From the NCBI GenBank assembly GCA_051362555.1, contig CM120643.1:14482644-14546643 (forward strand): a DNA stretch of 64,000 nt, given 5' to 3'. The stretch's first letter is position 1; every line of letters starts with the position of its first letter. This stretch comes from Lingula anatina (Eukaryota; Animalia; Brachiopoda). Position numbers and translations under genes: made by a program. This document shows positions 17,198 to 59,807 of this stretch, piece after piece. The notes below the pieces were generated by a model. It saw nothing but the letters and a program-made list of their open reading frames with translations. It had not been told where the DNA came from and made no database searches.

Positions 17198-20100
17198 TTA
17201 CATATTTTTGGCCATGGAGTAAAAATCTCCGTAGTATCTCGCAGCGTTGTTACCGCAACCGTTTTCCACGGTGCTGACGTAGTACTGATGGGCACCATCG
17301 CCGCTGTTTCCATGGCAACACAACTGGGTGCCATATTTGTACACGTTGCCATCGCAACAGCCACTGGCGAAGCCGATGTACTGGGAGGTGCCGCAGACTG
17401 GGGCGAAGAAGTTGTCTCGATCGCCTGGGCTGAGTTTGTACTGGGTGCCACCCATGGCGAAGTCACGGTAGAAAGCTTCATTGTAAAGCTGTGTGTAGGC
17501 GTTGCTGTCGATATTGTAGAGTTGGACGCCATCGCAGACCATGTCGCCTATGTGGTAGATGGTGGTTCCGCCGCAGCACTCAAATCTGAAGAAAAGGCAT
17601 TTTAAATTTTACATATTACACAGAGGAAATGTTTTCAAAGTTTCGACTTTACAATATTAATGTTACCAACCCACTCATTGATAGTTTTTCAACAATTTAC
17701 GATACGTGAAGCAAGCATTAATAACACTTTAATACACCTAATTCATATTTAGCTGCGCTCAAGCATTTATGAGGCAAAATGACTGGGACTACTATGGATG
17801 ATAAGACGGTTTGTGTGAAACTGATATTCGGAGCGATATAAAATGTATTCGTAAAATGAATTGACACTCTTCCACTTTCTTAACGTCATTAACCCATGAT
17901 ACATTTTTCAAACCCGTTAATATAAACTGACCCCCATGAATCAGACGACTTATGCACTCATCAACCCGTAATGTGTATTGACCCGCCTCCCCCCCCCCCC
18001 CAAACCCCATTCCCAAATTTGCTATTGACAAAATTTATCAGTCGTTATTTAAACGATAAACAATGAACCCACCCACGCCTTACACACACCCTTTACCCAC
18101 GTCAAGCACCGGTACTCACCCATCATAAGAATACACACTGCCGCCGCAGCAACCCTGTGTCTTGTGGTCGTAGAAGTTACCCGAGCAGGAGGCCTGGTAG
18201 ACGGGAGAGTATTCCTGAAGAGCGCCGTTCACGCACTGCTGGTTGGCCTTGGCGTAGACGCCGTAGCCTGGGCAGCATTTGTGAGTGCCGTAAACGTATG
18301 TGGTGCCGTCACAGCAGCCCTGGTAGCGGGGGTCGTAGTAAAAGTTGCCGCAGCTGGAATGGAGGGGAAATTACGGTGTATTTTCCCTGGATCATCTTGT
18401 GTTATGTAAATGATCGTTGCTATATTTTCCAGTGCGATCTCTAATATTTTATATTACTTTTACCTAAGTAGCGGCCAAGTTCTTAAATATATCTTGTGAG
18501 TAATATTGAAACTTATAAATGAATAAATTTAAGAACTCATAATTGCAACTTACATAGTTTTAATATCCCACAAACAACACAGACGACGTACATTCCCTTA
18601 TTGCTTAGTCTATGGCTAAAGATAGGTAATGTAATAAATTCAACATCAAATAAATATTAGGGGCTATTACCATATAGAAATCTTAGATTTGGAGTTACGA
18701 TAATGGTTAAATCACCCCACCCTACCAGTCAATTGTCTCTGTACAGATATCTTACCTTTTTCTAAATCCGTGACTGAGATAGCCGACCACGAGGGGGGCG
18801 GCGTCGGCTCCAGCGTTATCGTAGTAGAAACCATCGGCGCTGAATCCGAAGTCGCTGTCCAATTTGGGGTCGGAGCCCTGAACTACGGCTGGGGCGTTGT
18901 TGACGGTCTGAGACACCACGGCCCCTACTGGCTGCCCAGCCCCAATACCGCTGACGTACATGCCGGGCCCTTGGTTGCCGACATTGCTGGTGTACATACC
19001 GGGCCCTTGGTTGACGACATTGTTGGTGTACATGCCTGGTCCTTGGTTTACAACGGCAGGTCCGGCGTCTTCGTCTGGTTTTTGATCACCCTCATCTACG
19101 GCGGCCTGGCGTGCGCCCGGCACAACGGCTCCGTCAGGTACGAAGCGAGCGGGCTGCTGCTGACCGACCAGACCCTGTCCGTAAACGGAAGCAGTGGGAA
19201 GTTGACCTGGTGCTGGGCCGTAGACGCCGGCGTTGATGGCGGTGCGCAATAGATTGGAGTACACGGGGCTGTTCGCAATGGCGCCTCTGAGGAGAGGAGC
19301 GCCCCCTCTCAGGAGGGACCCGACGTTGGGCATGGCTGGCAAGTTGATAGCTCCGGTATTGCCAGTGTACTGGAGGGCGTTGTTGGGGAAGAGGCCAAGT
19401 TGAGTGTTGTAAAGAGGGGTGGGGCCGCTTCTGGCTGGGCTGCTTGGAGCAGTAGCGCCTGTGTAGACAGGGACAGGGGAGGGTCCGCCCGCAGTTGCCT
19501 GAGAGGTGGAGTCGTAGGCATTGGTGTTGCTTGCAGTACCAGAGTACACTGGGGGTCTGTAGTTGCTGATCGTGCTGTCCCCGTACACTGTGCTAGTAGC
19601 GCCAGAAGGAGGTGGCCTGTTCACGTTGGAGTACACTGGGGGTCTGTAGTTGATGCTAGTGCCGTCTCCGTACACTGTGCTAGTAGTGCCGTAGGTAGGT
19701 GGCCTGTACACGTTGGCGTTCCCAACAGTTGGGTTTCCTTGGTATGCGCCGTCAAGGGGCAGAGGATCACTGGGTTCGGCGGGCACTTCGAAGGACCTGG
19801 CGTCTGTTGAGACTGCTCCTTCGTCCACGGACGGACCGCTGCGGTCGCTGAATCTGGTAGTGGAAGAATACACGGAGGTGACGCCGTTGGTGGAGGAATA
19901 AGTGGTTGGACGGCTGCTTGCGACTGGGGAACGGTAGACGGAGGTGCCGGTGTCTCCCGCAGGGATGGTGCTCACCAGGCTGCCGCTAGGGTCGTAGACC
20001 TCGGTAGGTATGTTGTCGAGATTAAGGCCGTAGCTAGTGCCGACGTCACCGTAGGTCGCTCCCAGGTTGTTTCCAAGCCCGCCGCTGTAGAAGCTGTCAC

Positions 20101-20626
20101 CAAGGCCGACGTCTCCGCCGTAGAAACCGCTAGTGTCACCGCCGTAAATGCCAGCGTCGCCGCCGTAAATGCCAGCGTCACCGCTGTAAATACCAGCGTC
20201 TCCGCCGTAAACGCCGACATCTCCATATAATTTACCACCGTAAAGGGAACCGACGCCAGTACCGTAAGTGCCAGCGCCGTAGCTGAAAGCAGGGCTGGTG
20301 TACGCTGGACCACCGTAAGCAGGGGTTACACCGAAGCCATAACCCCCAGGGCGTGGGACACCGAAATTAAAACTGGCTGGAGAGGCGAGGTTAGCGTTAA
20401 GACCTGGCATACGAATGCCAGCAGCGGAGAAAAAGCGACTCAGGCCGCTGTTATCGAGGTAGTTTGGGTACCCACCCGCAACACCGCCGGCAGCGATGCC
20501 TGAGAGCCCGTGGTTGTACAGGCCAGCCCCATATCCTCCGTACCCTGAGTTTCCTATGTGCAAGCTGTATACTCTGTCTAAGACGGCCAACGCAAGGCAC
20601 AGCGTTAAGGTGAGTCTGAAGGCCAT
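17198..20626 (-). CDS. Cluster gene A: secreted Gly/Tyr/Pro-rich protein with three C-terminal galaxin-like di-Cys modules (~830 aa)
   Basis: complement join(20626-18756,18353-18120,17585-17198) = 2493 nt. GT-AG introns, both phase 2. Signal peptide MAFRLTLTLCLALAVLDRVYS. Repeats GGDAGIY, YRPP and NQGPGMY. Cys region begins CGNFYYDPRYQGCCDGTTYVYGTHKCCPG. Exon 2 is absent from the ORF track. Confidence 0.88.
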
Positions 20627-20707
20627 GTTGTTACGTAAAGACTGCCTTGTCCCCTACCTGCAGTCACAGACTTGTTCGGCGGTCCCTAGCAAAGAACCTT
20701 GATCTAC

Positions 20708-20740
20708 GAATGACTAAGTTTCCTTCAAGGCCCTTATATA
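20708..20740 (-). promoter_or_regulatory. TATA box plus initiator of gene A
   Basis: Minus-strand TATATAAG (20740-20733) with TCATTC (20713-20708) about 29 nt downstream, ~85 nt before the ATG. Confidence 0.65.
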
Positions 20741-21269
20741 TGACATATTTTCAATAATTATACCGTGTGAGTGACAGAGAGTGGACTCATTCCATATTGA
20801 AATCATCCCCACCGTGGTTAATTTAATGCGCCATAAAATAACGGGTCTGCCTAGCATCGTTAATGTAGATTAATGTGAAATATGCATTTAAGGAGGACGT
20901 TGATTACAATCTACGGGGGGGAGACCCGCATCGACAGCTGCTTAACGGGCTATCAAGGGATCTATCAGGAAGGAACGCTCCCCCTTTGACTGAAGTAAGC
21001 CTGTGCTTCCTTGGGAATGGACAGCGAGTTTCTTTTAATTAGAGGTGTTTATTGCCTCATATGCAGCTCACGACACGCACAGATACGTGTTGATATGAGG
21101 CTTACAAGATATTGTCAGAATTGAATTATACGAATTTTGGTCTTGACAAACGAGGAATGTAAAATTTTAAGGAGGGTCAAGGGAGTGCCGTACAATGAAA
21201 TTGCTATTGGTCGTTCTTTGATTAATCTTTTGATGAATTACGCACTTAGTGATTATATCCAAGTGTGCT

Positions 21270-21271
21270 TT

Positions 21272-21313
<42 letters not shown>
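21270..21313. repeat. (TTTA)n microsatellite
   Basis: Directly visible. Confidence 0.85.
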
Positions 21314-21314
<1 letters not shown>

Positions 21315-24307
21315 CGGTAAATAAAGATCTGAACAATCCGAACAAATCTTGTCATTTGCAAAAGTATTTGGACGCATCTTGTGCGGAATGCTTTCTTCAC
21401 TGCGAAACGCACCGTTGTAGCCTTTCAGCTTATTTATTTGTATTTCTATTTTTATTCATTTATTTATTGCACAAGTGCACCGTCACTCTTATATTGGGAA
21501 TACAATGTATGCATCAAGGTATAAATAAACCCAGATGCGCGTACCTCATAAGTGTATATTTTCCACATATTCCATTTGATCCGTTATTTTTTGATAGATT
21601 TTACCATTTCAGTTTGTATCATACCGTTTTCATCGTTATTCTAATACATCCCCGATAAAAAGATCGCCCATAGATAATAGCTGTGTTATATTAACGTGCA
21701 GTGCTAAGATTAATTGTATAATTTAGTTTTTGATTAGGTCTTGGTGAGCAAAGATTAAGGTGAGACTACTCTCATTTACATGTTCCAGATTGATAACGTA
21801 GATTCTTTGGCAAATAAAACCTTCACAAACCGTGTGAATTTGACGTTGAAAAATTGAAATCATTCCGAGTTATCCGTCGTAATTTGCCAGTATTGACAGC
21901 TTAAAAAGTGTGTTCAATGTTTTTTTTTCTTCTTTTCTGTCAAGATAGAGCAAGTCCCGTAATCGATAAAGGTTATATACAATTTAGATATACCACATTG
22001 TGAATATCTTAATTAGTTTTTGTCATATTTAGGATACTTTTATATTTTATTATTAGATAAGAAATATTTAAAATTAATAGTGTCTTTTTTCAGTTTTATA
22101 ATAAAAAAAAATTTAGAATATTTCCTTTCTACTGATTACTTGTAAATGTAACCGCCCTTAAGCACAGCCCGGTTTTCGTATTGTCAGTAGCTTTAAAACT
22201 GAGCGATTTTGACGTTGAAAATTCCATAATCTGTGTGTGTAAATAAAATAAAGACGCAAAAATATATTAAATGTACTGAGAAAGATACCCACTTACGCAT
22301 GGATAGCTCATGAATAAGAGCCTGGGAAGAGCTTACATATCATTTCTCATAGAAGGAAATGGGTGCATTTTCATATATTAATATATGAATTTTCATATGT
22401 ATGCACACGAAAAAGTTATATAAGGAAATTTAAAAAGACACGGTTAGTAGTGCAAAAGCGTGAGAATGGGAGTGCGCGCGGAACTTAATGGAGAACATTA
22501 ACTTGATTAAGAGAACTTTCTTGATTAGACCTGATGAAGGGGTCGCGTCACGTTATCATATCTGTAAAGCTATGCATCAATGCGATTTACTCTGGAGTCT
22601 TTCACTTAAAATGAGAAAAACAGCGGACAAAAATTGTTTCTCGTGGAAATATTTACCTATCACTTTCAGTGCCAAAACCATTTGCCAAGTAATTAAAATA
22701 TCAATATTTTTTTTAGACTTTTTTGTTCTTTGCAATTAGTTACTTTAAAACTTGCGTTGATTATCTTTGAAACTATTATTTTTCAACAAGCGTTGGTTTT
22801 ACTTTATAAAATAGCTGACATTGACTTATCAATTCACAGTTTTAAAGCATGCAGCAATTTGCGTTGTTTGCAAATGTGGCCTTAAATTGGTACAATATAT
22901 TCGCTCGGTCTATTTATACATAAAAAACCTCGTTTATATAAAACGGCCGAGAGGACTCGAGTCACCTTTGGTTTGGGGTCACCTAGCACATGATGACCAC
23001 TTTAAAGGAGTTTTGGGCGGTTTTATCTCAAAGTGACCACTTACAACACGACGATGAGTCACTGAAATTGAGGAAATGGTTTATTATTGCTTGTGTGATG
23101 TTTTAAAGTACACCGAAGTTTACGCACATGAAACCTACTATCCATCATCTTGTGGGTTTGTAAATTCTTTGGCGCATGCAGGTAACGGTCTAAATTTTCT
23201 GTTGTCAAAAATTATGTTTTCTGATTGATTCCCGAAAATAATATACATGTATGTCTACTCGTTTCTCAAAATTTAAAAGGATACTCATACTTCACACTAC
23301 CTTGAAATTTTGATGGATTGATTTTTTTCTGTAACCAATTAAAAACACGAATTTCATAAATTGTAGAATGGGCAATAAATGAATAAATAATGAATGACTG
23401 CATGAATAAATATGAAAATATAGTAAATATGTAAGTACACAGATGAATGTACAAACCATAGGGTTTTCCAGAATGGGAATTTGCATTGTAATGAGAAAAT
23501 GGCGTGCACGTTTCTGCCGTTATGAACAGATCTTGTCGAGATCACCTTGCACGGTTCGCGATAGCGTAACAGGACTGTCCTTTGTTTTGTAACACTTCAA
23601 AAGCGTTGCAACAATTCATTAGGGAGGTCTTATCTACGGGAAAGCACTAACTGAAAAAAACTGCTATGACCAGATAGGCAAATGCAATCACTGAATATTG
23701 CATGCACGCACACACTCTACTGCACGCACACGTACACGTGCAAAGGTGCCCCGTTACTTATAGCACTCTTTTTATTTTTAGTTTTTTAAATTATTATTAT
23801 TATCATTTTTAAACTGGTCCTTGTTTGCCGTTTAACCTTATATTTGAGGGTTTATTTATATTTAAAGATGATTTGAAAAATGTATAGAAATGTTCCAGCG
23901 AATAATATATCTCACCTCAAAAAGTACTACAAAATGTCACTTCAATTGGGTAAAAGTATTAGAGTTACAGCAACTGAATATATATTATTAAAAGTACCAT
24001 AGCGAAATGATAACTACAGAAGATATTAATTTCATACAAAATGAGACGTATTTGGTGGCAAGCACGTAGATATGAAGTGTTGAACGTAAGCGAAAGGTTG
24101 GTGGCATAATACGAATTTTGATCATATTTTTTATACTATAAAATAGTCTGCCCCGCCCCCCATATCGTACGACCCCCCCCCCCCCTCCCCTGTGTGATCT
24201 GGTATTGCGTTGCATATAGGTGCATTTAACATTTTCCGGTGTTTTGAGCTTTAGAAATATACTTCCATAATGCTTATACCGAATGCACCTTTATCCGTCG
24301 ACAATAG

Positions 24308-24474
24308 CAGGGGCGGATTGAGGTTGTCTTCTGGAAGGCAGTCAGATTTTCAAGTTTACATTGACGGGTATCTAATTTTTTTTCTGTTGGAAGACGGTCA
24401 AAACTGGAGGATGGATCAACAAAGATACTTGTTATTTGGAAGACTGTTAGAAAATAGCTCTGTATCCACCCCTG
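24308..24474 (-). mobile_element. MITE family 1, copy 2
   Basis: CAGGGGCGGATT ... ATCCACCCCTG, reverse orientation relative to the 8561 copy. Flanked by AATAG on both sides (possible TSD). Confidence 0.85.
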
Positions 24475-24823: not shown

Positions 24824-24826
<3 letters not shown>

Positions 24827-24857: not shown

Positions 24858-24860
<3 letters not shown>

Positions 24861-26122: not shown

Positions 26123-28090
26123 CTATCGTCCTTGATTGCTGTTCTGTTGGCCGTATGGACTGGTTCCATAATTGGTGCTGGGGTTTGAGTAACTGTTCTG
26201 ATTACCGTACAGACTGGATTGACTTCCGCCCACGTTGTTCGGTGAATAACTGCTGGACGATGTCCCAGAGGGTGTGTTAGAAGGGGAGCCATTGTTCTGG
26301 AGAACAGGGACGCCGTTATAGATAGGAGTGCCAGGCGGAGCTGGGTTAAAGTTGTTTCCTAAGCCAGTCTGTGTAAACTGAGACGGTTTCACGTTGTTTA
26401 AAGTGTACGTATTTGTACGCGGTGCTGCTCCTGGGAGATTACTGTAGGCGCCGGTGTACGCAGCGTACGGGCTGTATCCGTTCTGAGTCTGTACGCCATA
26501 GGGACTGCGACTGTAGATCGGACTGGGACTGTTGTACTTGGCGACAGGCCGTTGATAGCCACCACCGATCTGCCCGCTGTTGCCGTAATTGCTCGTTGGG
26601 TTTCCCGTGTAGCTATTGCCTCCAGTGTACGAGCCTTGGCCGCCAGTATAGCTGGGGGATCCAGTCAAGGTACCTTGATTACCATTATAATTTGGGGTAC
26701 CGGTTAACGTGCCCTGGCCGCCGTTGTAGCTTGGTGTGTTTGTGTACTGGCCTTGACCTCCGGTGTAACTTGGGACTTGACCACCATTGTAGTTAGGGAC
26801 GCCAGTGTTGTATTGCCCCTGGTTGCCTGTAAGGGTGCCTTGGCCACCGTTGTAATTTGGAGAACCAGTTAAAGTACCTTGCCCGCCCGTGTAGCTTGGT
26901 CCGCCCGTGTAAGACCCTTGTCCGCCAATTAAAGTGGGTGTGCCTGTAAGGGTGCCTTGTCCGCCATTGTAGCTCGGAGTGCCTGTATATTGGCCTTGTT
27001 GTCCAGCATTATAAGTTGGAGTGCCTGTGTAAGAACCTTGGCCGCCATTGTAATTTGGAGAACCAGTCAAAGTACCTTGCCCGCCTGTGTAGCTTGGTAC
27101 GCCCGTGTAGGAACCCTGGCCTCCTGTATAACTGGGAGCGCCTGTAAATGTGCCTTGACCGCCATTGTAAGTCGGAGCGCCGGTAAACTGACCTTGGCCG
27201 CCCAAATTGTAGTTAGGGGAGCCTGTCAAAGCCCCCTGGCCGCCATTATAGACAGGAGCTACAGCCTGACCGCCGTTGTAGGCGGGCACGCTACCATATC
27301 CACCCTGACCCCCTGTTATAGATCCCGTGTACAAACCTGGAATACTACCCTGATTTCCGCCATAGGGAGTTTGGGAGCCGAGATACTGGCCTTGAGGGGG
27401 GCCCTGTGGGGTGTTATAACTTGGCACCGCGCCTTGGTAAGGGCCCTGTACTGTATTGATAGGTTGGTTGGCAGTATACCTGCCGCCATTTGCTGGGATT
27501 TGGCCGTACTGTGCGCCGCCCGTGTATTGCGTGGGACTGGGGACTACCCCGGGAACACCAGCAGGTGCCCCGCCTGTGAACTGTGGGGTTCCAAAGCTTC
27601 CTGGCAAACCTCCGTAGCTGACTCCTGGGATCTGTCCGCCGGCGTTGTAACCACCGGGAGCGGGGCCCGCCGGGAGTCCTTGGTACTGACCTACGGCAGG
27701 TAGACCCTGGTATTGTCCGGTCGGGGAGACACCCAGGACACCTCCATATTGCTGGGCAGGACCTCCCGGGGGTGCTGTCAGATATTGCCCCGGACCGCCT
27801 GCTGGGAGACCGGGCTGGGCATACGGGCTGTAATGAGGAGCTACGCCTGGGTACTGACCTTGGGGAGCGTAGGGCCCAGCCGACGGGGCGCCGAGTGGAG
27901 AATACTGTGGCAGCGGTGGCTCATCTAGCCCATAGCTTGCTAGCTGGTCCCTACGCGTCCCTGGGATACCGGTTGTGGCGTAGTCAGTGTAGTCGGAATA
28001 TCCGTCTGGACTTGGAGCGGCGCCTGCTTCTAGGTGGTTGGCGGAGGCGCAGACAGCAAGTAGAGAAAAGGCTAGCCAAACTAGCGCCAT
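26123..28090 (-). CDS. Cluster gene B: secreted Gly/Tyr/Gln/Pro/Thr-rich low-complexity protein (655 aa, single coding exon, no Cys module)
   Basis: Long GC-rich ORF. Signal peptide MALVWLAFSLLAVCASA. Imperfect 13-aa repeats Y(N/T)GGQG(T/S)(L/Y)TG(S/T)P(N/S). Almost no charged residues after about aa 60. Confidence 0.88.
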   Translation of the reverse strand: MALVWLAFSLLAVCASANHLEAGAAPSPDGYSDYTDYATTGIPGTRRDQLASYGLDEPPLPQYSPLGAPSAGPYAPQGQYPGVAPHYSPYAQPGLPAGGPGQYLTAPPGGPAQQYGGVLGVSPTGQYQGLPAVGQYQGLPAGPAPGGYNAGGQIPGVSYGGLPGSFGTPQFTGGAPAGVPGVVPSPTQYTGGAQYGQIPANGGRYTANQPINTVQGPYQGAVPSYNTPQGPPQGQYLGSQTPYGGNQGSIPGLYTGSITGGQGGYGSVPAYNGGQAVAPVYNGGQGALTGSPNYNLGGQGQFTGAPTYNGGQGTFTGAPSYTGGQGSYTGVPSYTGGQGTLTGSPNYNGGQGSYTGTPTYNAGQQGQYTGTPSYNGGQGTLTGTPTLIGGQGSYTGGPSYTGGQGTLTGSPNYNGGQGTLTGNQGQYNTGVPNYNGGQVPSYTGGQGQYTNTPSYNGGQGTLTGTPNYNGNQGTLTGSPSYTGGQGSYTGGNSYTGNPTSNYGNSGQIGGGYQRPVAKYNSPSPIYSRSPYGVQTQNGYSPYAAYTGAYSNLPGAAPRTNTYTLNNVKPSQFTQTGLGNNFNPAPPGTPIYNGVPVLQNNGSPSNTPSGTSSSSYSPNNVGGSQSSLYGNQNSYSNPSTNYGTSPYGQQNSNQGR

Positions 28091-31000: not shown

Positions 31001-31591
31001 CAGATGTTTCGCAGACTGACTGATCCTCCGACTAAATATAACCTCGGAGTCGGGATTTAATCCGTTTAATGGCGTGTGTGGAGGCGGGGGGATCATCAGG
31101 AATAAGCGGCATCGCTTTTTTAAGAGGGGTCGGCCATGTTTAGTCGGCAGATCAGTTAGTCCGCGCGGATCATCTGTTCTGAGTGCGCTCTTGGTGATAC
31201 ATGTACATACCCCGTGCACGATGCATATCCTGCAATTACTTTAATACGAAGACTAAAAATAAGACGTGCTAAATTTCTTCTTTTTTCTTCCTTTTTTCCC
31301 ACATGGTTTATGTAAAACTGTCGTATCTGGTTATAAAAACGGGCATTTTAAAGGTTACCGTGCAGCTTTTGTGCTCATAAAATACTTGTACTTTTCGAAG
31401 ATCAGTAATAATGTTTTGATTACGTAAATCTTGGGTAGATACACGTTTATTTCCAAGCACATAACTGTTGTAAATATCTGTTTGTATATGCCATCGAGTG
31501 ATTATGAAGGCTCTGGTGTGAAATTTACATGATAAAAAGTAAAAGAATGCAAATTAAGACTTGATAAATTGTCTGATACGTCACTTACACC

Positions 31592-31806
31592 CCATTTCCA
31601 TAGATTTTTAGATCGATCTATCCCTGTGGGGAGTCTCACTAGATTACTGTCAGCTTGGCCGGCTTAAGCGTCTGTCCCGCCCACTAAAAGCTGTAAGGGG
31701 GTAATTATCTATGGTGCCCGCTCGGCTGACTGCAATTTAGTGTGAACCCCCAGGGAGTTAGGTCGATCTAAATCTTAATCTTTAGATCGATCTAAATCTC
31801 TGGGAA
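31592..31806. mobile_element. MITE family 3, copy 1
   Basis: TTCCATAGATTTTTAGATCGATC ... GATCGATCTAAATCTCTGGGAA inverted ends. Reverse-complement homolog at 57504-57718. Confidence 0.8.
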
Positions 31807-32099
31807 AGCACCCTTAAACTGCCAGTTTGAAAAGCAGTCTTGCGGACCATTTATAATTTTGTGCCATTCTTCCCAAAATAGAAGAATAATGTACATGCAT
31901 CAGGCGCGTTTATCAGTCCCCAAGATAAGCGGGATTCTTTGATTCAGTGTCCATAAATGTTAAATACGGATTTAATCTTTTACAGAAAGTACAAAGAAAG
32001 AACACAGTTTAATTTCTCTTTCCAATAGAGGTCACCAGGGTCGCCGCTACAAATAAGGCGCAGCTCCAGCACCCTGGAACTGATTCTGCCCTGGCGACT

Positions 32100-34065
32100 C
32101 TAATATGGGGCAGGGGCTTTGGGCTTTTTGGGATAGAGTGGTCTTGGTAGGATGGATCTGCACTGTTCACCGAAGGCTTTGTCAATCACGTAACCGTTTC
32201 CACAGCAATCTTGGGTTTTCCTATTGTACACGTACTCGTGGGCGCAGCATCCCTCCGTCTTGGTATCATAAACCTTTGAACCGCACCTGAGAGAAAACGT
32301 ATTTAAAAAAATGTCACAAATTATCTCATTCCTGTATTTGATCCCTTTATCCGGGGATTCTCAGTAAAGGGGCCCAGTCAATGTAACCAGCTCAATTGTC
32401 TGGTTCTCGTCATCGCAAAGCAACACGAAAAACATCATGGATCACAAAGATTTCCCAACTGTACCAAATACTTTAAGTTTCAATTACATTGACTACTCCT
32501 TAGCGAGAACCCTGCTGCAATAGATCGATCGTCATAATACGATAACTTCTATTCTGAACACAGTCTTAATTTGGTTACTTGCCATAAAGAGAGAGAGAGA
32601 GCACATAGAAGCGAAGGGTTGTTCTAAGTCTTACCTGCCACCGTAGTTGCTTCGATATTTGTATCCAGCATCCGGAGCATAACCAGGATCAGCAGGAGCA
32701 GGGGCGTACCCAGCATCTGGGGCATAACCAGGATCAGCATGGGCGTAACCAGCATCAGGGGCATAACCAGGATCAGCAGGGGCGTACCCAGCATCGGGTG
32801 CATAACCAGGATCAGCAGGGGCGTAACCGGCATCCGGAGCATAACCAGGATCAGTAGGAGCAGGGGCGTACCCAGCATCTGGGGCATAACCAGGATCAGC
32901 AGGGGCGTAACCAGGATCCGGGGCATAACCAGGATCAGCAGGGGCGTATCCAGCATCCTGAGCATAACCAGGATCAGCAGGAGCAGGGGCGTACCCAGCA
33001 TCTGGGGCATAACCAGGATCAGCAGGGGCGTAACCAGCATCCGGGGCATAACCAGGATCAGCAGGAGCAGGGGCGTAACCACCATCCGGAGCATAACCAG
33101 GATCAGCAGGAGCAGGGGCGTACCCAGCATCGGGCGCATAACCAGGATCAGCAGGGGCGTAATCAGCATCCGGAGCATAACCAGGATCAGCAGGAGCAGG
33201 GGCGTAACCAGCATCCGGAGCATAAGCAGGATCAGCAGGGGCGTAACCAGCATCCGGAGCATAACCAGGATCAGCGACGTAGCCTGCAGGTTTACCAACT
33301 AGGTACTTCTTGCCCCTGCATTGTTCACCTTTGGCCTTCTCAATAATGTACTCATTGTCGCAGCAGTCCTGTACCTTCCTGTTGTACACATGTTTATAGC
33401 CACAGCATCCCTCAGTCATAGTGTTGTACACATTCTTGCCACATCTGTGCGAGAAAAAATCGTACTTCATTTACCTGGGATCTCCATCTTTTACAGTAAA
33501 GTATATAACAAAAGAAATATATTAGTTAAGGTTTGACTAAGAAAGGAATGGATCAGTAGAATCTAAACCTAAAGATAAATTTTCATGTGCACAAACAAAA
33601 AAAATTGCAAATTTCTTACTTTCCAGCGTAGATGGCTGGGTTGGTATAAACAGGCTTTTTGGTGTAAGCAGGTGCCGGAGCATAGCCAGGGTCAGCAGCG
33701 GGGTAAGGAGCATCCTTAGCATATCCAGGACCAGCAGCGGGGTAAGGAGCGTCCTTAGCATATCCAGGACCAGCAGCGGGGTAAGGAGCATCCTTAGCAT
33801 ATCCAGGACCAGCAGCGGCGTAGGGAGCGTCCTTAGCATAGCCAGGATCAGCGGCGGCGTACCCAGCATAGCCCGCCGGATCAGCGGCGTAATTAGCACC
33901 ACCCAAACCAGCGTATACAGGGAATTTCACACCAGTGGATGCTTTACCTTTGGCGTATCGGCTGGCTCTGGAGTACCCACCTATTGTTAGAAAGTTGGAT
34001 GTTGCACTGTCAAGAGCAAGGGCTGTTAAGACAGCCAGCACTGTGACCACCTGCATCGAACCCAT
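32100..34065 (-). CDS. Cluster gene C: secreted Ala/Pro/Gly/Tyr/Asp repeat protein with two galaxin-like modules (~480 aa)
   Basis: complement join(34065-33620,33444-32635,32286-32100) = 1443 nt, GT-AG, both introns phase 2. Order: signal peptide, AAGPGYAKDAPYP repeats, module CGKNVYNTMTEGCCG..., GYAPDAGYAP(AP)ADP repeats, module CGSKVYDTKTEGCCA..., tail PKKPKAPAPY*. Confidence 0.88.
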
Positions 34066-41786: not shown

Positions 41787-44700
41787 TTACTGATACGGGT
41801 ATCCCCTGACTTGGTTCCTGGCCTGCTGTCCAACACCGCTGTTCATCTTGTTAGACCTCATTACGTAGGAAGGGACAGTTATCCCATTCGTTGAGGCACC
41901 GTTGTTGTTTCCCACTTGTTTCTTTTGGGAGTTGTTCCCAGAGTTACCACTGGAGTATCCAGGCGTATTGGAGTCGTAACCAGGAGTAGTTGGGCCATAC
42001 GACGGACCATTTCCGTTCCCAGAATTGCCGTAAGACGAGGACATACCATTTCCAGAGTTCATTGGTTTGTAACCATTAGAATTTGGGGGATACGATGGAC
42101 CATTTCCGTTCCCAGAGTTACCCCCATTTGACATCTTCATCATTGAATCACCATTGGTGCCATATCCAGTCATTTTGGGTGGATAACTATTAGGAGCTTT
42201 GTTTTGACCGTTAGACGATGACATACCATTTCCAGAGTTCATTGGTTTGTAACCATTAGAATTTGGAGGATAGGATGGACCATTTCCGTTCACAGAGTTG
42301 CGCCCATTCGACATCTTCATCATTGAATCACCATTAGTGCTGTATCCAGTCATTTTGGGTGGATAACTATTGGGAGCTTTGTTTTGACCGTTAGACGAGG
42401 ACATACCATTTCCAGAGTTCATTGGTTTGTAACCATTAGAATTTGGGGGATACGATGGACCATTTCCATTCCCAAAGTTACCCCCATTTGACATCTTCAT
42501 CATTGAATCACCATTGGTGCCGTATCCAGTCATTTTGGGTTTATAACTGTTAGGAGCTTTGTTTTGGCCGTTCGACGAGGACATACCATTTCCAGAGTTC
42601 ATGGGTTTGTAACCATTAGAATTTGGGGGATAGGATGGACCATTTCCGTTCACAGAGTTGCGCCCATTCGACATCTTCATCATTGAATCACCATTAGTGC
42701 TGTATCCAGTTATTTTGGGTGGATAACTATTAGAGGCTTTGTTTTGGCCGTTAGACGATGGCATACCATTTCCAGAGTTCATTGGTTTGTAACCATTAGA
42801 ATTTGGGGGATACGATGGACCATTTCCATTCCCAGAGTTACCCCCATTTGACATCTTCATCATTGAATCACCATTGGTGCCGTATCCAGTCATTTTGGGT
42901 TTATAACTGTTATGAGCTTTGTTTTGGCCGTTCGACGAGGACATACCATTTCCAGAGTTCATGGGTTTGTAACCATTTGAATTTGGGGGATAGGATGGAC
43001 CATTTCCGTTCACAGAGTTGCGCCCATTCGACTTCTTCATCATTGAATCACCATTAGTGCTGTATCCAGTCATTTTGGGTGGATAACTATTAGAGGCTTT
43101 GTTTTGGCCATTAGACGATGGCATACCATTTCCAGAGTTCATTGGTTTGTAACCATTAGAATTTGGGGGGTAGGATAGACCATTTCCATTCCCAGAATTG
43201 CGCCCATTTAACATCTTCTTCATTGAATCACCATTGGTGCCATATCCAGTCATTTTGGGTTTATAACTATTAGGGGCTTTGTTTTGGCCGTTAGACGATG
43301 ACATACCATTTCCAGAGTTCATTGATTTGTGCCCATTAGAATTTGGGGGATAGGATAGACCATTTCCATTCCCAGAGTTGAGCCCATTTAACATCTTCTT
43401 CATCATTGAATCACCATTGGTGCCGTATCCAGTCATTTGTGGTTTATAACTATTAGGGGCTTTGTTTTGGCCGTTAGACGATGACATACCATTTCCAGAG
43501 TTCATTGATTTGTGCCCATTAGAATTTGGGGGATAGGATAGACCATTTCCATTCCCAGAGTTGAGCCCATTTAACATCTTCTTCATCATTGAATCACCAT
43601 TGGTGCCGTATCCAGTCATTTGTGGTTTATAACTATTAGGGGCTTTGTTTTGGCCGTTAGACGAGGTCATACCATTTCCAGAGTTCATTGATTTGTGCCC
43701 ATTAGAATTTGGGGGATAGGATGGACCATTTCCATTCCCAGAATTGCGCCCATTGGACATCTTCATCATTGAATCACCATTGGTGCCGTATCCAGTCATT
43801 TGTGGTTTATAACTATTAGGGGCTTTGTTTTGGCCGTTCGACGATGACTTACCATTTCCAGAGTTACTTGATTTGTGCCCATTAGAATTTGGGGGGTAGG
43901 ATAGACCATTTCCATTCCCAGAGTTGCGCCCATTCGACATCTTCATCATTGAATCACCATTGGTGCCATATCCAGTCATTTTGGGTTTATAACTATTGGG
44001 GGCTTTGTTTTGGCCGTTAGACGATAACATACCATTTCCAGAGTTCATTGATTTGTGTCCATTAGAATTTGGGGGGTAGGATAAACCATTTCCATTTCCA
44101 GAGTTGCGCCCATTCGACATCTTCATCATTGAATCACCATTGGTGCCGTATCCAGTCATTTTGGGTTTATAACTATTGGGGGCTTTGTTTTGGCCGTTAG
44201 ACGATGACATACCATTTCCAGAGTTCATTGATTTGTGCCCATTAGAATTTGGAGGATAGGACAGACCATTTCCATTCCCAGAATTGCGCCCATTTGACAT
44301 CTTCATCATTGAATCACCATTGGTGCCGTATCCAGTCATCATTGAATTGCCAGCGGTGCTGTATCCCTTTAATTTAGGTATGTAACCATACAATGTTTTA
44401 GGCTTACCGTTATCGTTAGCGGTTTTAGATTGACCGTTAGACGATGACATCCCATTTCCAGAGGGCATGGGCTTGTTCCCATTAGAATTTGGGGGGTACG
44501 AAGGACCATTGCCATTCCCAGAGTTGCGCCCATTTGACATCTTCATCATTGAATCACCATTTGTGCCGTATCCAGTCATCTTGGGTTTGTTACCATTCAT
44601 TATTTTAGGCTGATAGTAACTTGGAGTCATTGAATCGTAGCCCTCAGTTGTTGGGCCGTATGTCATGGAATCGTAGCCACTAGTTGTTGGACCGTTATAT

Positions 44701-47036
44701 ACATTACTGTCATACCCAGTTGACTTCATTTGGGAATCCTCGTATCCAATCATTTTTGGTTTACCGTTCGACGAGGTACTGCCATAGCTTGGAGTGGTGG
44801 AATCATACCCATTAGTAGGTGGTTGGTAGTAGTTGTTGTTGCCTTGTTGGGTCTGCCTTTGTGTATCGTAAGAAGATGGCGGGTAGCCATATCGTAGTCC
44901 ACGTTCGCCTAGGCATTGCTTCGGCTTTGTGACGATATAGACGTTGTTGCAGCAATCTTGGGTGGAAAGTGTGTAAACCTTTTCATTGCAGCATCCCTCT
45001 AAACTAGTGTCATACTGGCCATCGCCACAACTGGAATGAAGAATATTAAGGGGGAGTCAATAAAATTATGAAAATGCAACTGTTCTAATTTTCTATTTAA
45101 ATATAATAAACCTTCCTAACGTCCAGCAACGTCCAGTATTTTTTTTTTTTTTTGGGGGGGGGGAGGGAGAGAGAAAATACCGTTTTCAGTTTTAAGGTTC
45201 TCTTTAGCACCAGGACAACTTCAGTGCATCTAAATGATTTAAAAGGCAATATAAAGCTTGGAAAAAAACACTGTCAAATGATATCACAAGGTCATCTATT
45301 ATGATATCCTTCGGATTTTTCCGGCTTTCCTTTGAAATCACTCCAAATGGGATTTTCACTTCAAAAAGTGATAACTTACAAGCAAACAATTTCCCCTTTA
45401 AGGTTATTTCACGGACAGCCCTTTTCTTGTGGCGCGTTAAAGTATGTATTTTATTAATGTTGTTGTTCATAAAAATGGACTCTTTTGTCACTTTTATATA
45501 TTTTGAGTACACTGTAAGTGAGTTCCTAAAAGGGATTTGATAATAAGCAGGAATAAGTTTTGACAATTGGAGAGATTTCAGTGTCCCTTGCAATGCTTAC
45601 AAAAACCCAGGATGGGAGGAAAAAGGTTTTATACCCGTAAGCCTTACAAACTATAAAGTAGATTGAAACCTAAAACATTATAATTGCAATGTGATTAGAA
45701 TAAATTACCTTCCCATATATATGTATGGATCAACAACTTCATATCCATATCCGTACCTGCTGGAAGGACCATTGGTGTTTCCATAGCCATTGGAGTCTCC
45801 GTTGCCATTACTGCCATAGGGGTCTTGGGTGTCTCCATAGCCATTGGAGTCTCCGTTGCCATTACTGCCATATGGGTCTTGAGTGTCTCCATAGCCATTG
45901 GAGTCTCCGTTGCCATTACTGCCATAGGGGTCTTGGGTGTCTCCATAGCCATTCGAGTCTCCGTTGCCATTACTGCCATATGGGTCTTGGGTGTCTCCAT
46001 AGCCATTGGAGTCTCCGTTGCCATTGCTGCCATATGGGTCTTGGGTGTCTCCATAGCCATTGGAGTCTCCGTTGCCATTGCTGCCATATGGGTCTTGGGT
46101 GTCTCCATAGCCATTGGAGTCTCCGTTGCCATTGCTGCCATAGGGGTCTTGGGTGTCTCCATAGCCATTGGAGTCCCCGTTGCCGTTGCTGCCATAGGGG
46201 TCTTGGGTGTCTCCATAGCCATTGGAGTCCCCGTTGCCATTACTGCCATAGGGGTCTTGAGTGTCTCCATAGCCATTGGAGTCTCCGTTGCCATTACTGC
46301 CATATGGGTCTTGGGTGTCTCCATAGCCATTGGAGTCTCCATTGCCATTACTGCTATATGGGTCTTGGGTGTCTCCATAGCCATTGGAGTCTCCGTTGCC
46401 ATTACTGCTATATGGGTCTTGGGTGTCTCCATAGCCATCACTGCCATATGGGTCTTGGGTGTCTCCATAGCCATCACTGCCATAGGGGTCTTGGGTGTCT
46501 CCATAGCCATCACTGCCATAGGGGTCTTGGGTATCTCCATAGCCATTTGAGTCCCCATTGCCATTACTGCTATATGGGTCTTGGGTGTCTCCATAGCCAT
46601 CATTGCCATATGGGTCTTCTGTGTCACCATAACCATTGGAGTCTCCGTTGTCATTACTGCTATATGGGTCTTGGGAGTCTCCATAGCCATTACTGCCATA
46701 GGGGTCTTCTGTGTCTCCATAGCCATTGGAGTCTCCGTTGCCATTACTGCTATATGGGTCTTGGGTGTCTCCATAGCCATCACTGCCATATGGGTCTTCT
46801 GTGTCACCATAACCATTGGAGTCTCCGTTGTCATCACTGCCATAAGGGTCTTGGGTGTCTCCATAGCCATTGGAGTCTCCGTTGCTATATGGGTCTTGGG
46901 TGTCTCCATAGCTTGACGAACTGCCATAGCTGCTAGAGTCAACGTAGCGAGCCTGGGAACCGCCCGAATGCTTTGACCATGGTGCACTGAATAGTGCTAT
47001 GGCAACAAGCAGCATGCGCGCATGCCCTGCTGTCAT
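41787..47036 (-). CDS. Cluster gene D: secreted diblock repeat protein (acidic 18-aa repeats, one galaxin-like module, basic 60-aa repeats), ~1,523 aa
   Basis: complement join(47036-45709,45030-41787) = 4572 nt. Donor AG|GTAAT, acceptor TTCCAG|T TGT GGC, phase 2. The exon-2 start CGDGQYDTSLEGCCNEKVYTLSTQDCCNNVYIVTKPKQC reads without a stop into the 988-aa ORF. Signal peptide MTAGHARMLLVAIALFSAPWS. Confidence 0.88.
41990..44590 (-). repeat. Coding tandem repeat, 180-nt (60-aa) unit, ~14 copies
   Basis: Unit KMTGYGTNGDSMMKMSNGRNSGNGNGPSYPPNSNGYKPMNSGNGMSSSNGQNKAPNSYKP. Near-identical text recurs at 42061, 42241 and 42421. Confidence 0.95.
45780..46915 (-). repeat. Coding tandem repeat, 54-nt (18-aa) and 36-nt (12-aa) units
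   Basis: Units GDTQDPYGSNGNGDSNGY and GDTQDPYGSDGY. Confidence 0.95.
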
Positions 47037-51706: not shown

Positions 51707-51872
51707 AAGGGGCGGATCCAGAGATATATTCTGACAGTCTTCCAAATTATCTTTATTGATCTATCCTCCATTTTTGACCGTCTTCCAACAGAAAAAAATT
51801 AGATACCCGTCAATGTAAACTTGAAAATCTGACCGTCTTCCAGGAGACCCAGAAGACGGCCTAAATCCGCCC
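51707..51872 (+). mobile_element. MITE family 1, copy 4
   Basis: AGGGGCGGATCCAGAGATA ... CCTAAATCCGCCC with the shared interior. Confidence 0.85.
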
Positions 51873-51874
51873 AA

Positions 51875-51963
51875 TAGAGTTAATGCGCAGTAGCTATTGC
51901 GTCCTAACTTTTTCTGAACTTCAGAAAAAGTTAGGACGCAATAGCTACTGCGCATTAACTCTA
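51875..51963. repeat. Perfect 89-bp palindrome (44-bp arms, 1-nt spacer)
   Basis: TAGAGTTAATGCGCAGTAGCTATTGCGTCCTAACTTTTTCTGAA, then C, then its exact reverse complement. Confidence 0.95.
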
Positions 51964-54900: not shown

Positions 54901-57503
54901 TGGGGACGGGCATGTTAGATGTCTTCTACCTTTAATTGGTGCACTCACGGCTCTACGAACCACGCTAACAACTTTAACCAGCACTGTCGCATTTTTCTCT
55001 TTTGCGCTTTAGCTTGTGTATTCTTATCTTTAAGGTTCCATGCGGTGCTTTTCTCTTTAATTATCAGTTGTTACCGAGTAATTTTACCGGTTGGGGAGAG
55101 CAGACGACAAAGTTCGGATAAAATCCATACCATGCCCACCATTTTCGCGCCCAAGAAAGTATGGAAACGTTTCGGACATTTTGATGTATTACTGGATTTC
55201 TTATTTCTTACTAAGTGAAACGTTCAGTGGATTTTCCCTTTATCTTATTAAAAGCTTGAACACAATATTCAAGTTTCTTCTTCGGTTTTTTTCATTGCAG
55301 CTTCAAAATTTAACTAATCGATTGGTTAGAAGTTTCATATATTTTTAAAATTTCGGTTTGAATCATATTACTGTATTACAGTTGGAATAGGTCCTTTAAC
55401 ATCGTGATTAAGATCTTCTCCCTAGATAGCCTCCCCAGTGATAGGGTCATTTTTACCCGATGATTTGAATTTTACGGCCATTTATATGTCATTCTTTGGG
55501 CGGGTGGCAATAACTCTCCCCACAGTTTTCAAAGTATTGCAGGAAACCCTATTAAGTCTTTTTAAAATCGTCTCTTTATTATTTTTGTCTCATTTTAAAA
55601 TACATGTATCTACCTAAACGACATTAAGCAGGAAAATCTCTTTTTGATCTGCTCACATTTCGGAATGCTAGTGTTTCACGCAGAGTAGATAATCGTAGGG
55701 ATTTGTCAGTATCTTCTTCCTTTCATGTACTGTATATTCTGACACGTTTAGATGTTTGATTCTACCCTTGTTATTCTGCTGCCTTATTGAGGTATGTATC
55801 ATCAGTATCTTGTTTACTTCACCGCGTTTGCTGATTTAACTTTACTAGTAACAGGTTCAGTTTAGCAAAAGCGAGTCAGTTGAGTTGAAATTACTGAAAG
55901 TTTTGCTTACATTTCTCACTCTCGTTGTCTTTTTTATTCATGACTTGCCATTTTTAAAGACATTCGTATGTCTCCGTAGTTAGTATCACCCTATATGAAA
56001 TAGTTTCCTGGACTGACGTTGTTTTGAATCCAAATATTCCAAATGCCTGTCAAGAAAACTTGATCGCATGTTTAGTTGCACCTTTTTAATGAAAATGACT
56101 TCCGTCTGTTCAGATATTCCATTCTTACGCAAACTGAAAATGCGGAGTAGTAGGCTTACATGCGAAATCCCATTCTACCTAAATAAGTAGAAAAATATGT
56201 GGTTTTAAAACATTAAATCATGTTGTGCTTTGGGCTTGGTAGTTAATAGGAGAATCGGTGGTAAGTAAAAAAAAAATGGTTGGACACAGTTTATTTTTAA
56301 GCTTTAAGAACATTTTCTCTGCAAAAAAAAAAAAACAATGTAAAAAAACAATGGCACTGCCCATTTCATGTACTGTAATGCTAATACCATTAATAGAAAT
56401 ATTTGAAGAAGAGGAAGATGCTTTTTGTTGAACTGTTTGCATTGGTTTGAAGTAATATGTTGCATGCCATGGGGGGGGGGGGGGGGGGCGAGTAACAGGC
56501 ACAGGTCTGTGTTTTTGAAAAGATTCATGTATTGGGGCATGTAAAATTGGTCCTAATATGTATGAAGTTAGTTGCAGTGTTGCTTTCATAGTCACTTTTG
56601 TTATATAAATTGGCAGTTTGAGAGATAATACGTGCTAGATGGGGTCAAAAATTGATACATTGTCTGTGTGTCCACCACATAATCGACTTGTCTGTTCATT
56701 TAACAATGTAGAAAACAATTTTGGTCTCATCAAACCTCATTCCAGCTCGAATTACCACGAGTTTAAACTCTGGCAGGTCCAATCCAACTCTGTCAATCAT
56801 CGTACCGCCCGGCCATTACACTTGCTAGGCCGAGACTTGCGGAGAATATTATGAATAAACATTGGCAGGGGAAATGTCGTAAAGTAGATTTCAGCTTTAA
56901 ATTTAGAATAGAAGTTTGGTGAACAGACTAACTGTTGTATCTTCTTTGCCATGAAGCATTAAAAGGTCTGGTATTTACTTAATATATTTATATATAGAAT
57001 AAGGGTACATGTATGTTTTTAAGGACAGTTTGCGGTTTAAGGTTAGTCAGCTATATGCTCTTTTAAAACAATAGATGTCCCCAGATTTGGACACTGTCAC
57101 TATATGCGTGTGCTAAACTGCAAACTATTCCGAGATCATATCTTGCAAGAAAATAAATACATTTTTGCACTCTCACTTAAATCATAAACTATCATATTTA
57201 AGGATATCTCTTCGCTTTCAAGAAGCAAAGTATACACGCACAACTCACGTGTCCGTTTGTGCTTTTAGAAAAAGCTGGTTGATCAGTCACTAGATAAACT
57301 ATAGAGATTTTATGGACTAAAACATTGATCGAAAGGATTAGATAAACTTACAAAGATCACTTTGTGTTTTATTTTCTTGATCGTTAACATCATTTCTTTA
57401 GCAGCATGGTTTTGATTTAAGATTGAGACTAAAATGACGATTTCTTTGAATTCCTTGTCTCTTGTACCATGTCCTTACTATGACAGAGAAGTTTCAGACT
57501 GAG

Positions 57504-57718
57504 TTCCCACAGATTTAGATCGATCCATCCGGATCGACCTTACTCCCTGGGGGTTCACGCTAAATTGCTGTCAGCTTCCGGGAGACTAGCGCGCACAAAA
57601 GTTAATTACCCCCTTACAGCTTTTAGTAGGCGGGACAGACATTTAAGCCGGCTAAGCTGACAGCAATCTAGTGAGACTCCCCAGGGGGATAGATCGATCT
57701 AAATATCTGTGGGAATGG
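57504..57718. mobile_element. MITE family 3, copy 2
   Basis: TTCCCACAGATTTAGATCGATC ... GATCGATCTAAATATCTGTGGGAA. Inverted homolog of 31592-31806. Confidence 0.8.
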
Positions 57719-58189
57719 TCTCTTAGTAGCAGTCCGATGAATGCACACATGTTTTTACTCGTGATATTAGTACATGGTCATGTTTTACCATAATAATGAC
57801 ATGGCCCTTTCTGTACAGTTGAATAATTTTGGTCATGTTTTTGTGAAAGAAGAAATACAAAAGGAAAAAGACAAAAACTGTTTTTATTATTCATCACTTG
57901 CATTGTATTGTTACTCAGGAAAATGGAAATGACGTAATAGAAACAGCACGAGATGCGTATTTAAATGTGTATGTTTAATACAGACACACAAAACTGTTTG
58001 AAAACATTTTATTCTTTTTTCAAGTAAGAATTTTTACCATATTTAAAGTGTCTCTTCTACGACGTAATTTTTGAAAGAAAAAATTAATAAAAAAAACGCA
58101 ACAGCGCCAAGTTAGAAACCTGGATATCCATTGGACATATCATATTTTCTAAATATATTGTCTATTTTCAGTTTAACATTGTCTCCAGC

Positions 58190-59807
58190 ATGGCGAAGAG
58201 GATGTGCCTCTTGGTCGTAGGTGTGCTGCTATTGGCTGGATCCAGTCACGAGTCAGGTTTTCAGGGGAACAAGATCGTCGCCTCCCTCGATATTGTACCG
58301 AGAGAGACGATTCCAGTCGTGCCATCATATTCTATTCAACTGGATGGACCTGTTACAGTGAATGCATTATCTTCTGCCTCCTATTACCAGTCTTTATCGG
58401 ATCCAAAGAGACTCCCTAGAACCAGGTAGGCTACATACATGTACAAAACTTTCTTCATCCAAAGGCGGACACACGGGCACAAGGTGCAAAAGTAACTTAC
58501 TTCAGACCCACTTCAATACTTGGAAATGCAGAATTGCCGAGCAAACCAAATTACATATTCACAACCTTGTGCTCTTCCCTACCCTTTTACACCCTAGCTT
58601 GTTTTTATTTTTTGTTTGTCAAAGTCACCTTCAAATGTGCAATACATAAATCACAGATATACTAGCAGATGCGTTTTGGTAGAATACGACTAAAATGAAA
58701 GAGACACATAATGAAGTCTACTATAGTTTATTAGTTCTTTCTTGTCTTGCTGCATCAGTCCATTATTTCAACCCGTTTCTTCTCTTCAGATGTGACCGCG
58801 TCAATGAGTACGACACCAAGTCTCAGGCCTGTTGTGGACAATCCACCACCCTTCCCAACGGCGTCAGGTGTTGTCAAGGCAACGTATACAACAAGGCGGC
58901 CCAGTTCTGCTATCGAGGCGTGGTCCACTACTACTTGGACTTCAATCCGATTCAACAACCACGTCCCAAATGTGGCCAGTATTACTATCACTACCAAGAT
59001 CAGGCCTGTTGCGCCGGCAAGATCTATATCCCAGCCAGCCAGGGGTGTTGCAACAACGTGGTCTTTACCTACGCGACACAGATGTGCGTCGGCGGACAAG
59101 TGCGAGAACATAATTCCTACGCCCCATGTCCAGGATTCCACACCGATCACCCGTCGCAATACGGTTGCTGCAATGGCGTCTCGTACTTGTACAGCACGAA
59201 GGGATGTTGCCAAGGCAATGTGTACGACCTTGACGTGAGCAAGTGCACCAAGGACACGCTGACTGTTCATAGGGACGGAAAAAAGCGCTGTGGCGGGCAG
59301 GTTTACATCCAGCACAACCTCAGCTGCTGCCGAGGACTGCTCTACGATCACAACAAACAGACTTGCTGCGAGGGGCGCGTCCTCAATGCGACCACCATGT
59401 ACTGCCAAGAAGGCCGCGGGCTCAGATATGACAAAATGGTGCTCTGTGGCGCGATGCAGTACGACCCCACGCGCTTCGGCTGTTGTCATGGTGATCCCTT
59501 TGATCCTCGTCACCAGGGCTGCTGCGCCTATACTGTGTTTTGGAAGAACCAGTACACGTGTACCAATGGTTACCTGTACCCCGTGGCCGCTGATCCGGTC
59601 GGATCCGGAAACCAGATGCCATATTGCGATGACGAAGCGTTTGATCCTTCCAAGGGCAAGAGATGCTGTGGCAAGCTGACGTATAAAACCGGGTTTGAGA
59701 GCTGCTGTGGCCAGAACCCCTACTTCAGAGCACGACAGGTCTGCTGTGAGAGCGATAACGGCCAGTATTTCAGAAGATCCAGAATGGTCGGTTGCAGAAG
59801 TTTTTAA
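58190..59807 (+). CDS. Cluster gene E: secreted galaxin-like protein with six di-Cys modules (~417 aa)
   Basis: join(58190-58425,58790-59807) = 1254 nt. Donor AG|GTAGG, acceptor TTCTCTTCAG|A TGT, phase 2. Signal peptide MAKRMCLLVVGVLLLAGSS. Tandem C-x11-CC-x11-CC-x11-C units with the CC-x4-Y pattern typical of galaxin-like repeats. An acceptor at 58171 suggests an upstream 5'UTR exon. Confidence 0.9.

Follow-up and report, generated by a model that had tools for sequence, protein, structure and literature searches.

A cluster of genes for putatively secreted galaxin-like and glycine/tyrosine-rich proteins in the brachiopod Lingula anatina, with a possible role in a non-mineral extracellular layer

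The 64,000-nt stretch of contig CM120643.1 of Lingula anatina analysed here (the window) contains five adjacent genes, designated A to E, between positions 17,198 and 59,807 (Table 1). Gene E is on the plus strand, the other four on the minus strand. The spliced models of A (830 amino acids, aa), C (480 aa), D (1523 aa) and E (417 aa) are open and have GT-AG introns, and gene B is an open frame of 655 aa in one coding exon. Each of the five proteins begins with a hydrophobic stretch, for which the best Kyte-Doolittle mean over 10 residues is 2.55-3.37, and none has a second hydrophobic segment. Five neighbouring genes that each start with a putative signal peptide, as proposed in a preliminary description of the locus, are found over the full span, the signal peptides being called from hydropathy and not from a dedicated predictor. 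No additional GC-rich open reading frame (ORF) with a signal peptide was found among the five genes in an ORF check within the cluster span. The composition of the predicted proteins supports a secreted structural role for A-E.

The proteins contain 12 copies of a cysteine (Cys) module, distributed as 3, 0, 2, 1 and 6 copies in A, B, C, D and E, in agreement with the earlier count. When the unspliced sequence was translated in six frames, 10 modules of the strict form were found, against none in each of 100 6-mer shuffles. The module consists of di-Cys pairs spaced by 10-15 residues and flanked on either side by a lone Cys. Its initial formula, C-x11-CC-x11/12-CC-x11-13-C, holds overall and departs at the first gap of E1, E3 and E6 (12 residues), at the last gap of A3 (19 residues) and in E6, which has a third CC pair. 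Proteins A, C, D and E have 6, 4, 2 and 13 di-Cys motifs, and the number of Cys residues after the signal peptide is even in every protein (18, 0, 12, 6 and 38 for A to E). Modules C1, C2 and D1 are the most similar (48-61% identity outside Cys; branch support 90/92). C1 and C2, which lie 228 residues apart, are 61% identical outside Cys, and the ratio of nonsynonymous to synonymous differences (pN/pS) between them is 0.22.

The Cys module corresponds to the galaxin repeat already defined in Pfam (PF24748), clearly in A and E and probably in C and D. Exon 2 of gene E (125 bits) and exon 2 of gene A (37.2 bits) both exceed the PF24748 cut-off of 28 bits, while the single modules of C and D reach 20.1, 21.3 and 21.6 bits (E-values 2e-4 to 6e-4) against the same cut-off. 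Gene B matches neither Pfam nor a profile built from 11 of the 12 modules. The original galaxin-like assignment is supported by the Pfam scores. The module profile, a check suggested at the outset, retrieved 920 representatives at an E-value of 0.001 or less. Of 158 outside matches, 25 contain a closed 6-Cys module and six contain a Cys-free stretch of 150 or more residues, none of these six with more than 4% Tyr. This comparison covered the best 150 of the 920 representatives, which favour many-repeat proteins, and comparable arrangements may occur further down the list. Named matches in a word-based search include proteins of brittle star, fish, Ciona and dinoflagellates, and in the Atlas gene E matched galaxin-repeat clusters, with no usable match for exon 2 of gene C. 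One profile representative is an archaeal protein. Galaxin-type repeats occur in the apparently prokaryotic proteins P0015, P0023, P0031, P0036 and P0134, one of them named from an archaeon, and some such proteins are fused to PKD/FN3-like or PF09603 domains.

Table 1. Positions of the exons of genes A-E and of the neighbouring LARS2 gene in the window
Feature	Position	Strand	Description
Gene A exon 1	18756..20626	-	Signal peptide and ~600-aa Gly/Ser/Ala/Pro/Tyr block, net charge -14 (602 aa)
Gene A exon 2	18120..18353	-	Module A1 (18352-18233) and start of A2; phase-2 intron on each side; PF24748, 37.2 bits
Gene A exon 3	17198..17585	-	Rest of module A2, module A3 (17395-17255), stop
Gene B single coding exon	26123..28090	-	Signal peptide followed by Gly/Pro/Thr/Tyr/Gln sequence with a 13-aa repeat; lacks the Cys module
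Gene C exon 1	33620..34065	-	Signal peptide and basic Ala/Pro/Gly/Tyr repeat block
Gene C exon 2	32635..33444	-	Module C1 (33443-33318) and acidic block of 13/15-aa GYAPDA repeats, net charge -24
Gene C exon 3	32100..32286	-	Module C2 (32285-32160), then a short basic tail; AlphaFold2 pLDDT 79
Gene D exon 1	45709..47036	-	Signal peptide and acidic block of 18-aa GDTQDPY repeats, net charge -76
Gene D exon 2	41787..45030	-	Module D1 (45029-44913) and basic block of 60-aa Asn/Gly/Ser/Met/Lys repeats, net charge +66
Gene E exon 1	58190..58425	+	Signal peptide and short linker; agrees with RefSeq protein
Gene E exon 2	58790..59807	+	Six modules; RefSeq 'galaxin-like' / 'galaxin-2'
LARS2	1959..16371	+	Leucyl-tRNA synthetase; neighbour outside the cluster, tail-to-tail with A; start is the first recognised exon

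The low-complexity blocks contain all the motifs named in the preliminary description: GGDAGIY (two copies), YRPP (three), YNGGQGTLTG (three), GYAPDA (11), GDTQDPY (19) and MKMSNG (10). The first two are minor components of gene A, which is mostly non-repetitive Gly/Ser/Ala/Pro/Tyr sequence. Tyr makes up 7-15% of the blocks, and the Gly+Tyr fraction of the longest Cys-free block in A-D is 0.24-0.32. The blocks had been described as mutually unrelated, which holds between genes, where shared 5-mers are no more frequent than in shuffles (0 of 20 pairs over control), but not within gene C, whose two blocks are related (E-value 3e-12) and form the sole pair to exceed the shuffled control. Similarly, the suggested combination of repeat block and Cys module in all five proteins is confined to A, C and D, since B lacks Cys beyond its signal peptide and E is without a low-complexity block. 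Gene D encodes a block polyampholyte, in which a first block of net charge -76 (18.6% Asp+Glu) is followed by one module and a block of net charge +66. In gene C, a basic block precedes an acidic one.

These opposite charges, in D and in C, would also suit an adhesive or mucous secretion that sets by charge-driven condensation, whether or not 3,4-dihydroxyphenylalanine (DOPA) is involved; candidates are a sediment glue of the pedicle tip, a burrow lining and a coat of eggs or embryos. Lys/DOPA-rich glues are unlike A, B and the long block of C, in which Lys+Arg is 1-4%, and Tyr at 7-15% is only a modest component of the blocks. There is precedent in the galaxin-like proteins enriched in the adhesive footprint of the quagga mussel (PMC12993968) and in scallop byssus, which has Tyr-rich and Cys-repeat proteins among its main components (PMC9168380). 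We regard such a secretion as very doubtful.

Adjacent repeat units of B, C and D differ mainly at silent sites, which argues that these genes are coding. In the sense frame, pN/pS between adjacent units of the commonest length is 0.22 for the 60-aa repeat of D (9 pairs), 0.05 for its 18-aa repeat (13 pairs), 0.17 for C (6 pairs) and 0.24 for B (6 pairs), the pairs being non-independent, as compared with 0.96-8.5 in shifted frames. By this measure, the repeats of B, C and D appear to be under purifying selection in the sense frame. The repeats of B (26622-27251) and C (32651-33275) both have a 13-residue period, which is also the length of the CC-x11 spacing in the module. Sequence comparison revealed no link, and the shared period is probably a coincidence. 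The possibility that the 13-residue repeat of B is a galaxin repeat without Cys was rejected, as it gave no score against the module profile.

All six introns of the cluster are in phase 2, the phase of the intron of E being taken from its 236-nt first exon, and five of the six (in A, twice in C, in D and in E) end a single base upstream of the codon for a module's first Cys. The exon join of gene E is present in RefSeq. From this shared intron position and the adjacency of the genes, to which sequence similarity adds little, A, C, D and E are likely tandem paralogues whose repeat blocks grew independently. The ancestral gene would have comprised a signal-peptide exon, a phase-2 intron and a Cys-module exon. 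Its tandem duplication may have been followed, in A, C and D, by expansion of the sequence beside the module into unrelated Gly/Tyr repeats, with C duplicating its own repeat-intron-module unit internally, and E would have multiplied the module.

A model of module C2 from a 14-row alignment has a predicted local distance difference test score (pLDDT) of 79 and four strands, at residues 11-14, 18-21, 25-28 and 32-35. The predicted strands are in line with the published hairpin model of calcarin and galaxin, in which each di-Cys bonds to the preceding hairpin within the chain (PMC12419799). Together with the even Cys counts, this model predicts three in-chain disulfides per module and no free thiol, which weakens the earlier proposal that the module is a covalent cross-linking unit. 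Each 40-residue module may instead fold as a closed beta-hairpin unit that would act as a non-covalent anchor. Comparison of the C2 model with the PDB gave no Foldseek match at an E-value of 0.001 or less and none of 48,161 chains at Z of at least 2, which does not imply a new fold. The module sequence profile also matched no PDB chain, and single-sequence folding of exon 2 of gene E reached a pLDDT of only 35. Weak matches of the modules to IGFL (PF14653; E-values 0.03-0.09) lie at 18120-18352, 32103-32285 and 33290-33443, and a further protein, P0068, matches the same family at an E-value of 4e-4. These matches hint that the vertebrate IGF-like IGFL ligands and galaxin repeats share a hairpin unit; no paper naming both was found in a literature search.

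Like other galaxin-like proteins (PF24748; PANTHER PTHR34490 according to PMC12419799), including the sponge calcarins, A, C, D and E have putative signal peptides, tandemly clustered genes, a di-Cys every ~13 residues with flanking single Cys, and a predicted beta-hairpin fold. Unlike the calcarins, with 10-23 di-Cys (PMC12419799), A, C and D carry a closed 6-Cys module in one to three copies, and only E, with 13 di-Cys, lies within the calcarin range. The modules of A, C and D also differ from galaxin-like proteins in being embedded in Gly/Tyr blocks of 230-1,040 residues. Acropora Amgalaxin-like 1 and 2 resemble the present proteins in having a signal peptide, an acidic low-complexity domain before the di-Cys repeats and a bipartite charge, and the unit repeated in Amgalaxin-like 2 is 41 aa long (PMC2726143). 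As for an acidic domain of this kind, the block of D carries -76 and the middle block of C -24, but that of A only -14 over 602 aa. The Amgalaxin-like proteins have many tandem di-Cys repeats and an acidic block that is not Gly/Tyr-repetitive (PMC2726143), whereas D has one module, with an acidic block before it and a long basic block after it, and C has two that are separated. Galaxin sensu stricto of scleractinian corals is likewise secreted and built of di-Cys repeats, and gene E is nearest to it in layout. It differs in its RXRR endoprotease motif (PMC6824150), absent from all five proteins A-E, and in its continuous ~30-aa repeats, the modules of A-E being spaced by linkers.

A Cys module joined to a low-complexity block is a common design of invertebrate matrices, which tempers the significance of the cluster. 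In cnidarian minicollagens and NOWA, a small 6-Cys cysteine-rich domain (CRD) is common to matrix proteins with differing repeat blocks. This is an analogy only, as the CRD, which polymerises by disulfide reshuffling, has another Cys spacing and belongs to another family. Lustrin A alternates Cys modules and low-complexity blocks. With N14/pearlin and cysrichin, it is among the secreted mollusc matrix proteins with di-Cys motifs (PMC2726143, PMC10045328), here likened by description only; these proteins differ in coming from carbonate shells. The idea that A-E form an undescribed family is correct only in part. The module, the association of an acidic block with di-Cys repeats, and the clustering of galaxin-like genes are already published for corals or sponges. 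The long Gly/Tyr blocks of 230-1,040 residues with one to three modules, the acid-block/module/basic-block chain of D, and genes A and C themselves appear to be new, and a literature search, with subscription journals outside its coverage, found no description of this brachiopod cluster or of this layout.

The model of gene E agrees with two RefSeq entries at 414-416 of 417 residues (three differences and one). One of them, 'galaxin-2', sits on a 15.7-kb contig and falls in the same protein-sequence cluster as the other, 'galaxin-like [Lingula anatina]' (417 aa), and the two are probably alleles. As whole proteins, A and C seem to be absent from public protein collections, although clustering or split models could hide either. 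Exon 1 of gene A has no match among the 7,990 proteins of 342-1,091 aa that rank highest by shared words, and the best identity to A among the proteins fetched is ~31%. On the alignment from which the module profile was built, A and C would be expected to score 126 and 105 bits, while the profile list ends at 71 bits, above the 54 bits of gene D. Gene E was the sole Lingula protein among 12 returned by a word-based search of proteins of 113-2,000 aa. An exact look-up of gene B is made uninformative by polymorphism.

Four RNA sequencing runs without tissue labels (6-30% of each) were mapped to positions 12,700-23,700, which include the 3' end of LARS2 and gene A. Gene A has no abundant transcript in these four samples. 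Three LARS2 introns are bridged by GT-AG joints, two of them in all four runs and one in three, and depth on its last exon is ~2.5-3. Gene A is near silent in all four runs, with trace reads in three, and its scattered depth (up to ~2.5 in one bin of run X8, below 1 in X7 and X9, none on exons in X1) is to be read with the many differences between the reads and the window, by which a fast-evolving gene may fail the 90% cut-off. Most of the mapped RNA reads are partial matches to short elements in LARS2 introns (15075-15280 and 13006-13052), which are thus dispersed, transcribed repeats. The observed/expected CpG ratio is 0.83 across the cluster and 0.32 across most of LARS2. In invertebrates, a high ratio marks unmethylated genes of tissue- or stage-restricted expression. 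The ratio jumps from ~0.3 to ~0.9 at ~14000, near the 3' end of LARS2, which suggests a sharp methylation boundary before the cluster. TATA-like boxes are located 114 bases before the ATG in A and 60 bases before it in D.

Shell proteomes, another comparison raised initially, did not bear out a place for E in the mineral layers. The word 'galaxin' has no occurrence in the 2015 Lingula paper and supplement (PMC4595640) or in the supplement to a 2026 shell proteome (PMC13425148), and the accessions of gene E, although annotated, do not occur in that of 2026. None of the 65 proteins in Tables 25-26 of the 2015 supplement (PMC4595640) has the length and composition of A-E, and searches of the 2026 supplement (PMC13425148) for the motifs of A-D were empty. 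Digestion of B with trypsin would yield only two peptides of 7-35 aa. In both studies the shells had been bleached and the spectra searched only against gene models, and one states that the periostracum was thereby removed (PMC4595640, PMC13425148). The negative result is thus fair only for E in mineral layers. These data make it distinctly unlikely that the cluster encodes matrix proteins of the mineralised apatite shell, in which the Asp-rich block of D would capture calcium and guide the growth of apatite, and the modules would provide a framework. Such a role would have family precedent in the biominerals of coral, sponge and mussel (PMC2726143, PMC12419799, PMC10045328), and the strongly acidic first block of D would suit it; A and C, apparently missing from public models, could also have escaped searches based on gene models.

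Our preferred reading, to which we give a probability of roughly 45%, is that A-E are secreted and make up a tanned layer outside the cells that contains no mineral, for example the larval shell, the periostracum or the pedicle cuticle. The larval shell of Lingula is organic. Once secreted, the disordered blocks, with their Tyr content and the opposite charges found in D and C, would condense, and a tyrosinase or peroxidase acting on Tyr would harden the condensate into the layer. Condensation of this kind (coacervation) is known from tubeworm cement. Counted in favour are the shared intron position, the RefSeq join of E, the related blocks and modules of C, the low pN/pS of the repeats, the family match, the predicted strands of the module, the even Cys counts, the CpG ratio, the near silence of gene A and the bleaching of the shells, together with two observations from the literature. 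One is a Lingula tyrosinase (gene 09477) whose expression is 257 fragments per kilobase per million (FPKM) in larvae but only 3 in mantle and 0 in each of four further tissues, with a second homolog at 28 FPKM in the pedicle (PMC4595640, supplement Table 24); it points to a possible site of tanning of Tyr-rich substrates and is not evidence on A-E. The other is a galaxin of Riftia, which is body-wall specific and occurs alongside chitin-binding tube proteins (PMC2175520). The main text of a paper on the Paraescarpia tube proteome does not mention galaxin (PMC8476170).

A number of results weigh against a single tanned layer. No splice joint of gene A was found at a threshold of three reads in the four runs, which neither confirms nor refutes its splicing. 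Galaxin-like proteins elsewhere belong to mineral matrices or are antimicrobials (PMC2726143, PMC12419799, PMC10045328, PMC12773714). Seven of the nine inner branches of the module tree are open, and when each gene was left out in turn, 70-822 of 1,257 outside galaxin-like windows, which had been selected for similarity, scored at least as high as the left-out modules, so that a Lingula clade of modules is not provable by sequence alone. Gene B shows no link to A, C, D and E by module profile or 5-mers, only by position and composition, and is likely an unrelated neighbour. Finally, only 14 8-mers are common to the upstream regions, below the control mean of 45, and 192 of 200 controls have at least as many.

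The lack of shared upstream motifs would favour, over the single co-expressed kit proposed initially, paralogues that stand together merely through tandem duplication and are deployed in different tissues or stages, which we consider somewhat unlikely. In that case E could be an epithelial antimicrobial like the squid galaxins, which are cationic and organ-specific and yield antibacterial peptides (PMC12773714), and B an unrelated neighbour; the module region of E has a net charge of +11. E is annotated in RefSeq and A and C were not found in the protein collections, which suggests different expression, and published galaxin-like clusters, such as that of the calcarins, hold paralogues that differ in cell type (PMC12419799). 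Separate deployment is harder to reconcile with the strand, signal peptide, high Gly+Tyr content and CpG-rich domain that A-D have in common.

The tanned-layer reading has a more specific form, to which we allow a small chance: A-D would be an unannotated, stage-restricted kit for larval shell or periostracum, condensing, docking on E through the galaxin module and being tanned by the larva-specific tyrosinase. If true, A-D would include secreted acidic proteins of the kind not found in the 2015 shell study (PMC4595640), and galaxin modules would be shown to assemble non-mineral materials in a phosphatic brachiopod. Those genes with acidic, Tyr-rich and likely secreted products that seem absent from public protein sets are in any case named candidates for organic layers hidden from proteomes based on bleached shells and gene models. 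What galaxin repeats bind has been called unresolved (PMC6824150, PMC12419799), and D, with one module, and C, with two, offer the simplest natural setting for asking this.

The call of LARS2 is based on a class I tRNA synthetase match and on spliced reads over its last three introns. Between C and D lies a fragment of a non-long-terminal-repeat (non-LTR) reverse transcriptase (36714-37121; PF00078, E-value 5e-5). Dispersed repeats resembling miniature inverted-repeat transposable elements (MITEs), with inverted copies, occur between genes at 31583-31820 and 57490-57727, and at 24326-24473, 35457-35645 and 51708-51872. Hairpins are present at 51870-51968 and 62873-63065, and the longer one overlaps a 120-aa open frame on the minus strand (62988-63347), which has no Pfam match and may belong either to a repeat or to the gene that follows.

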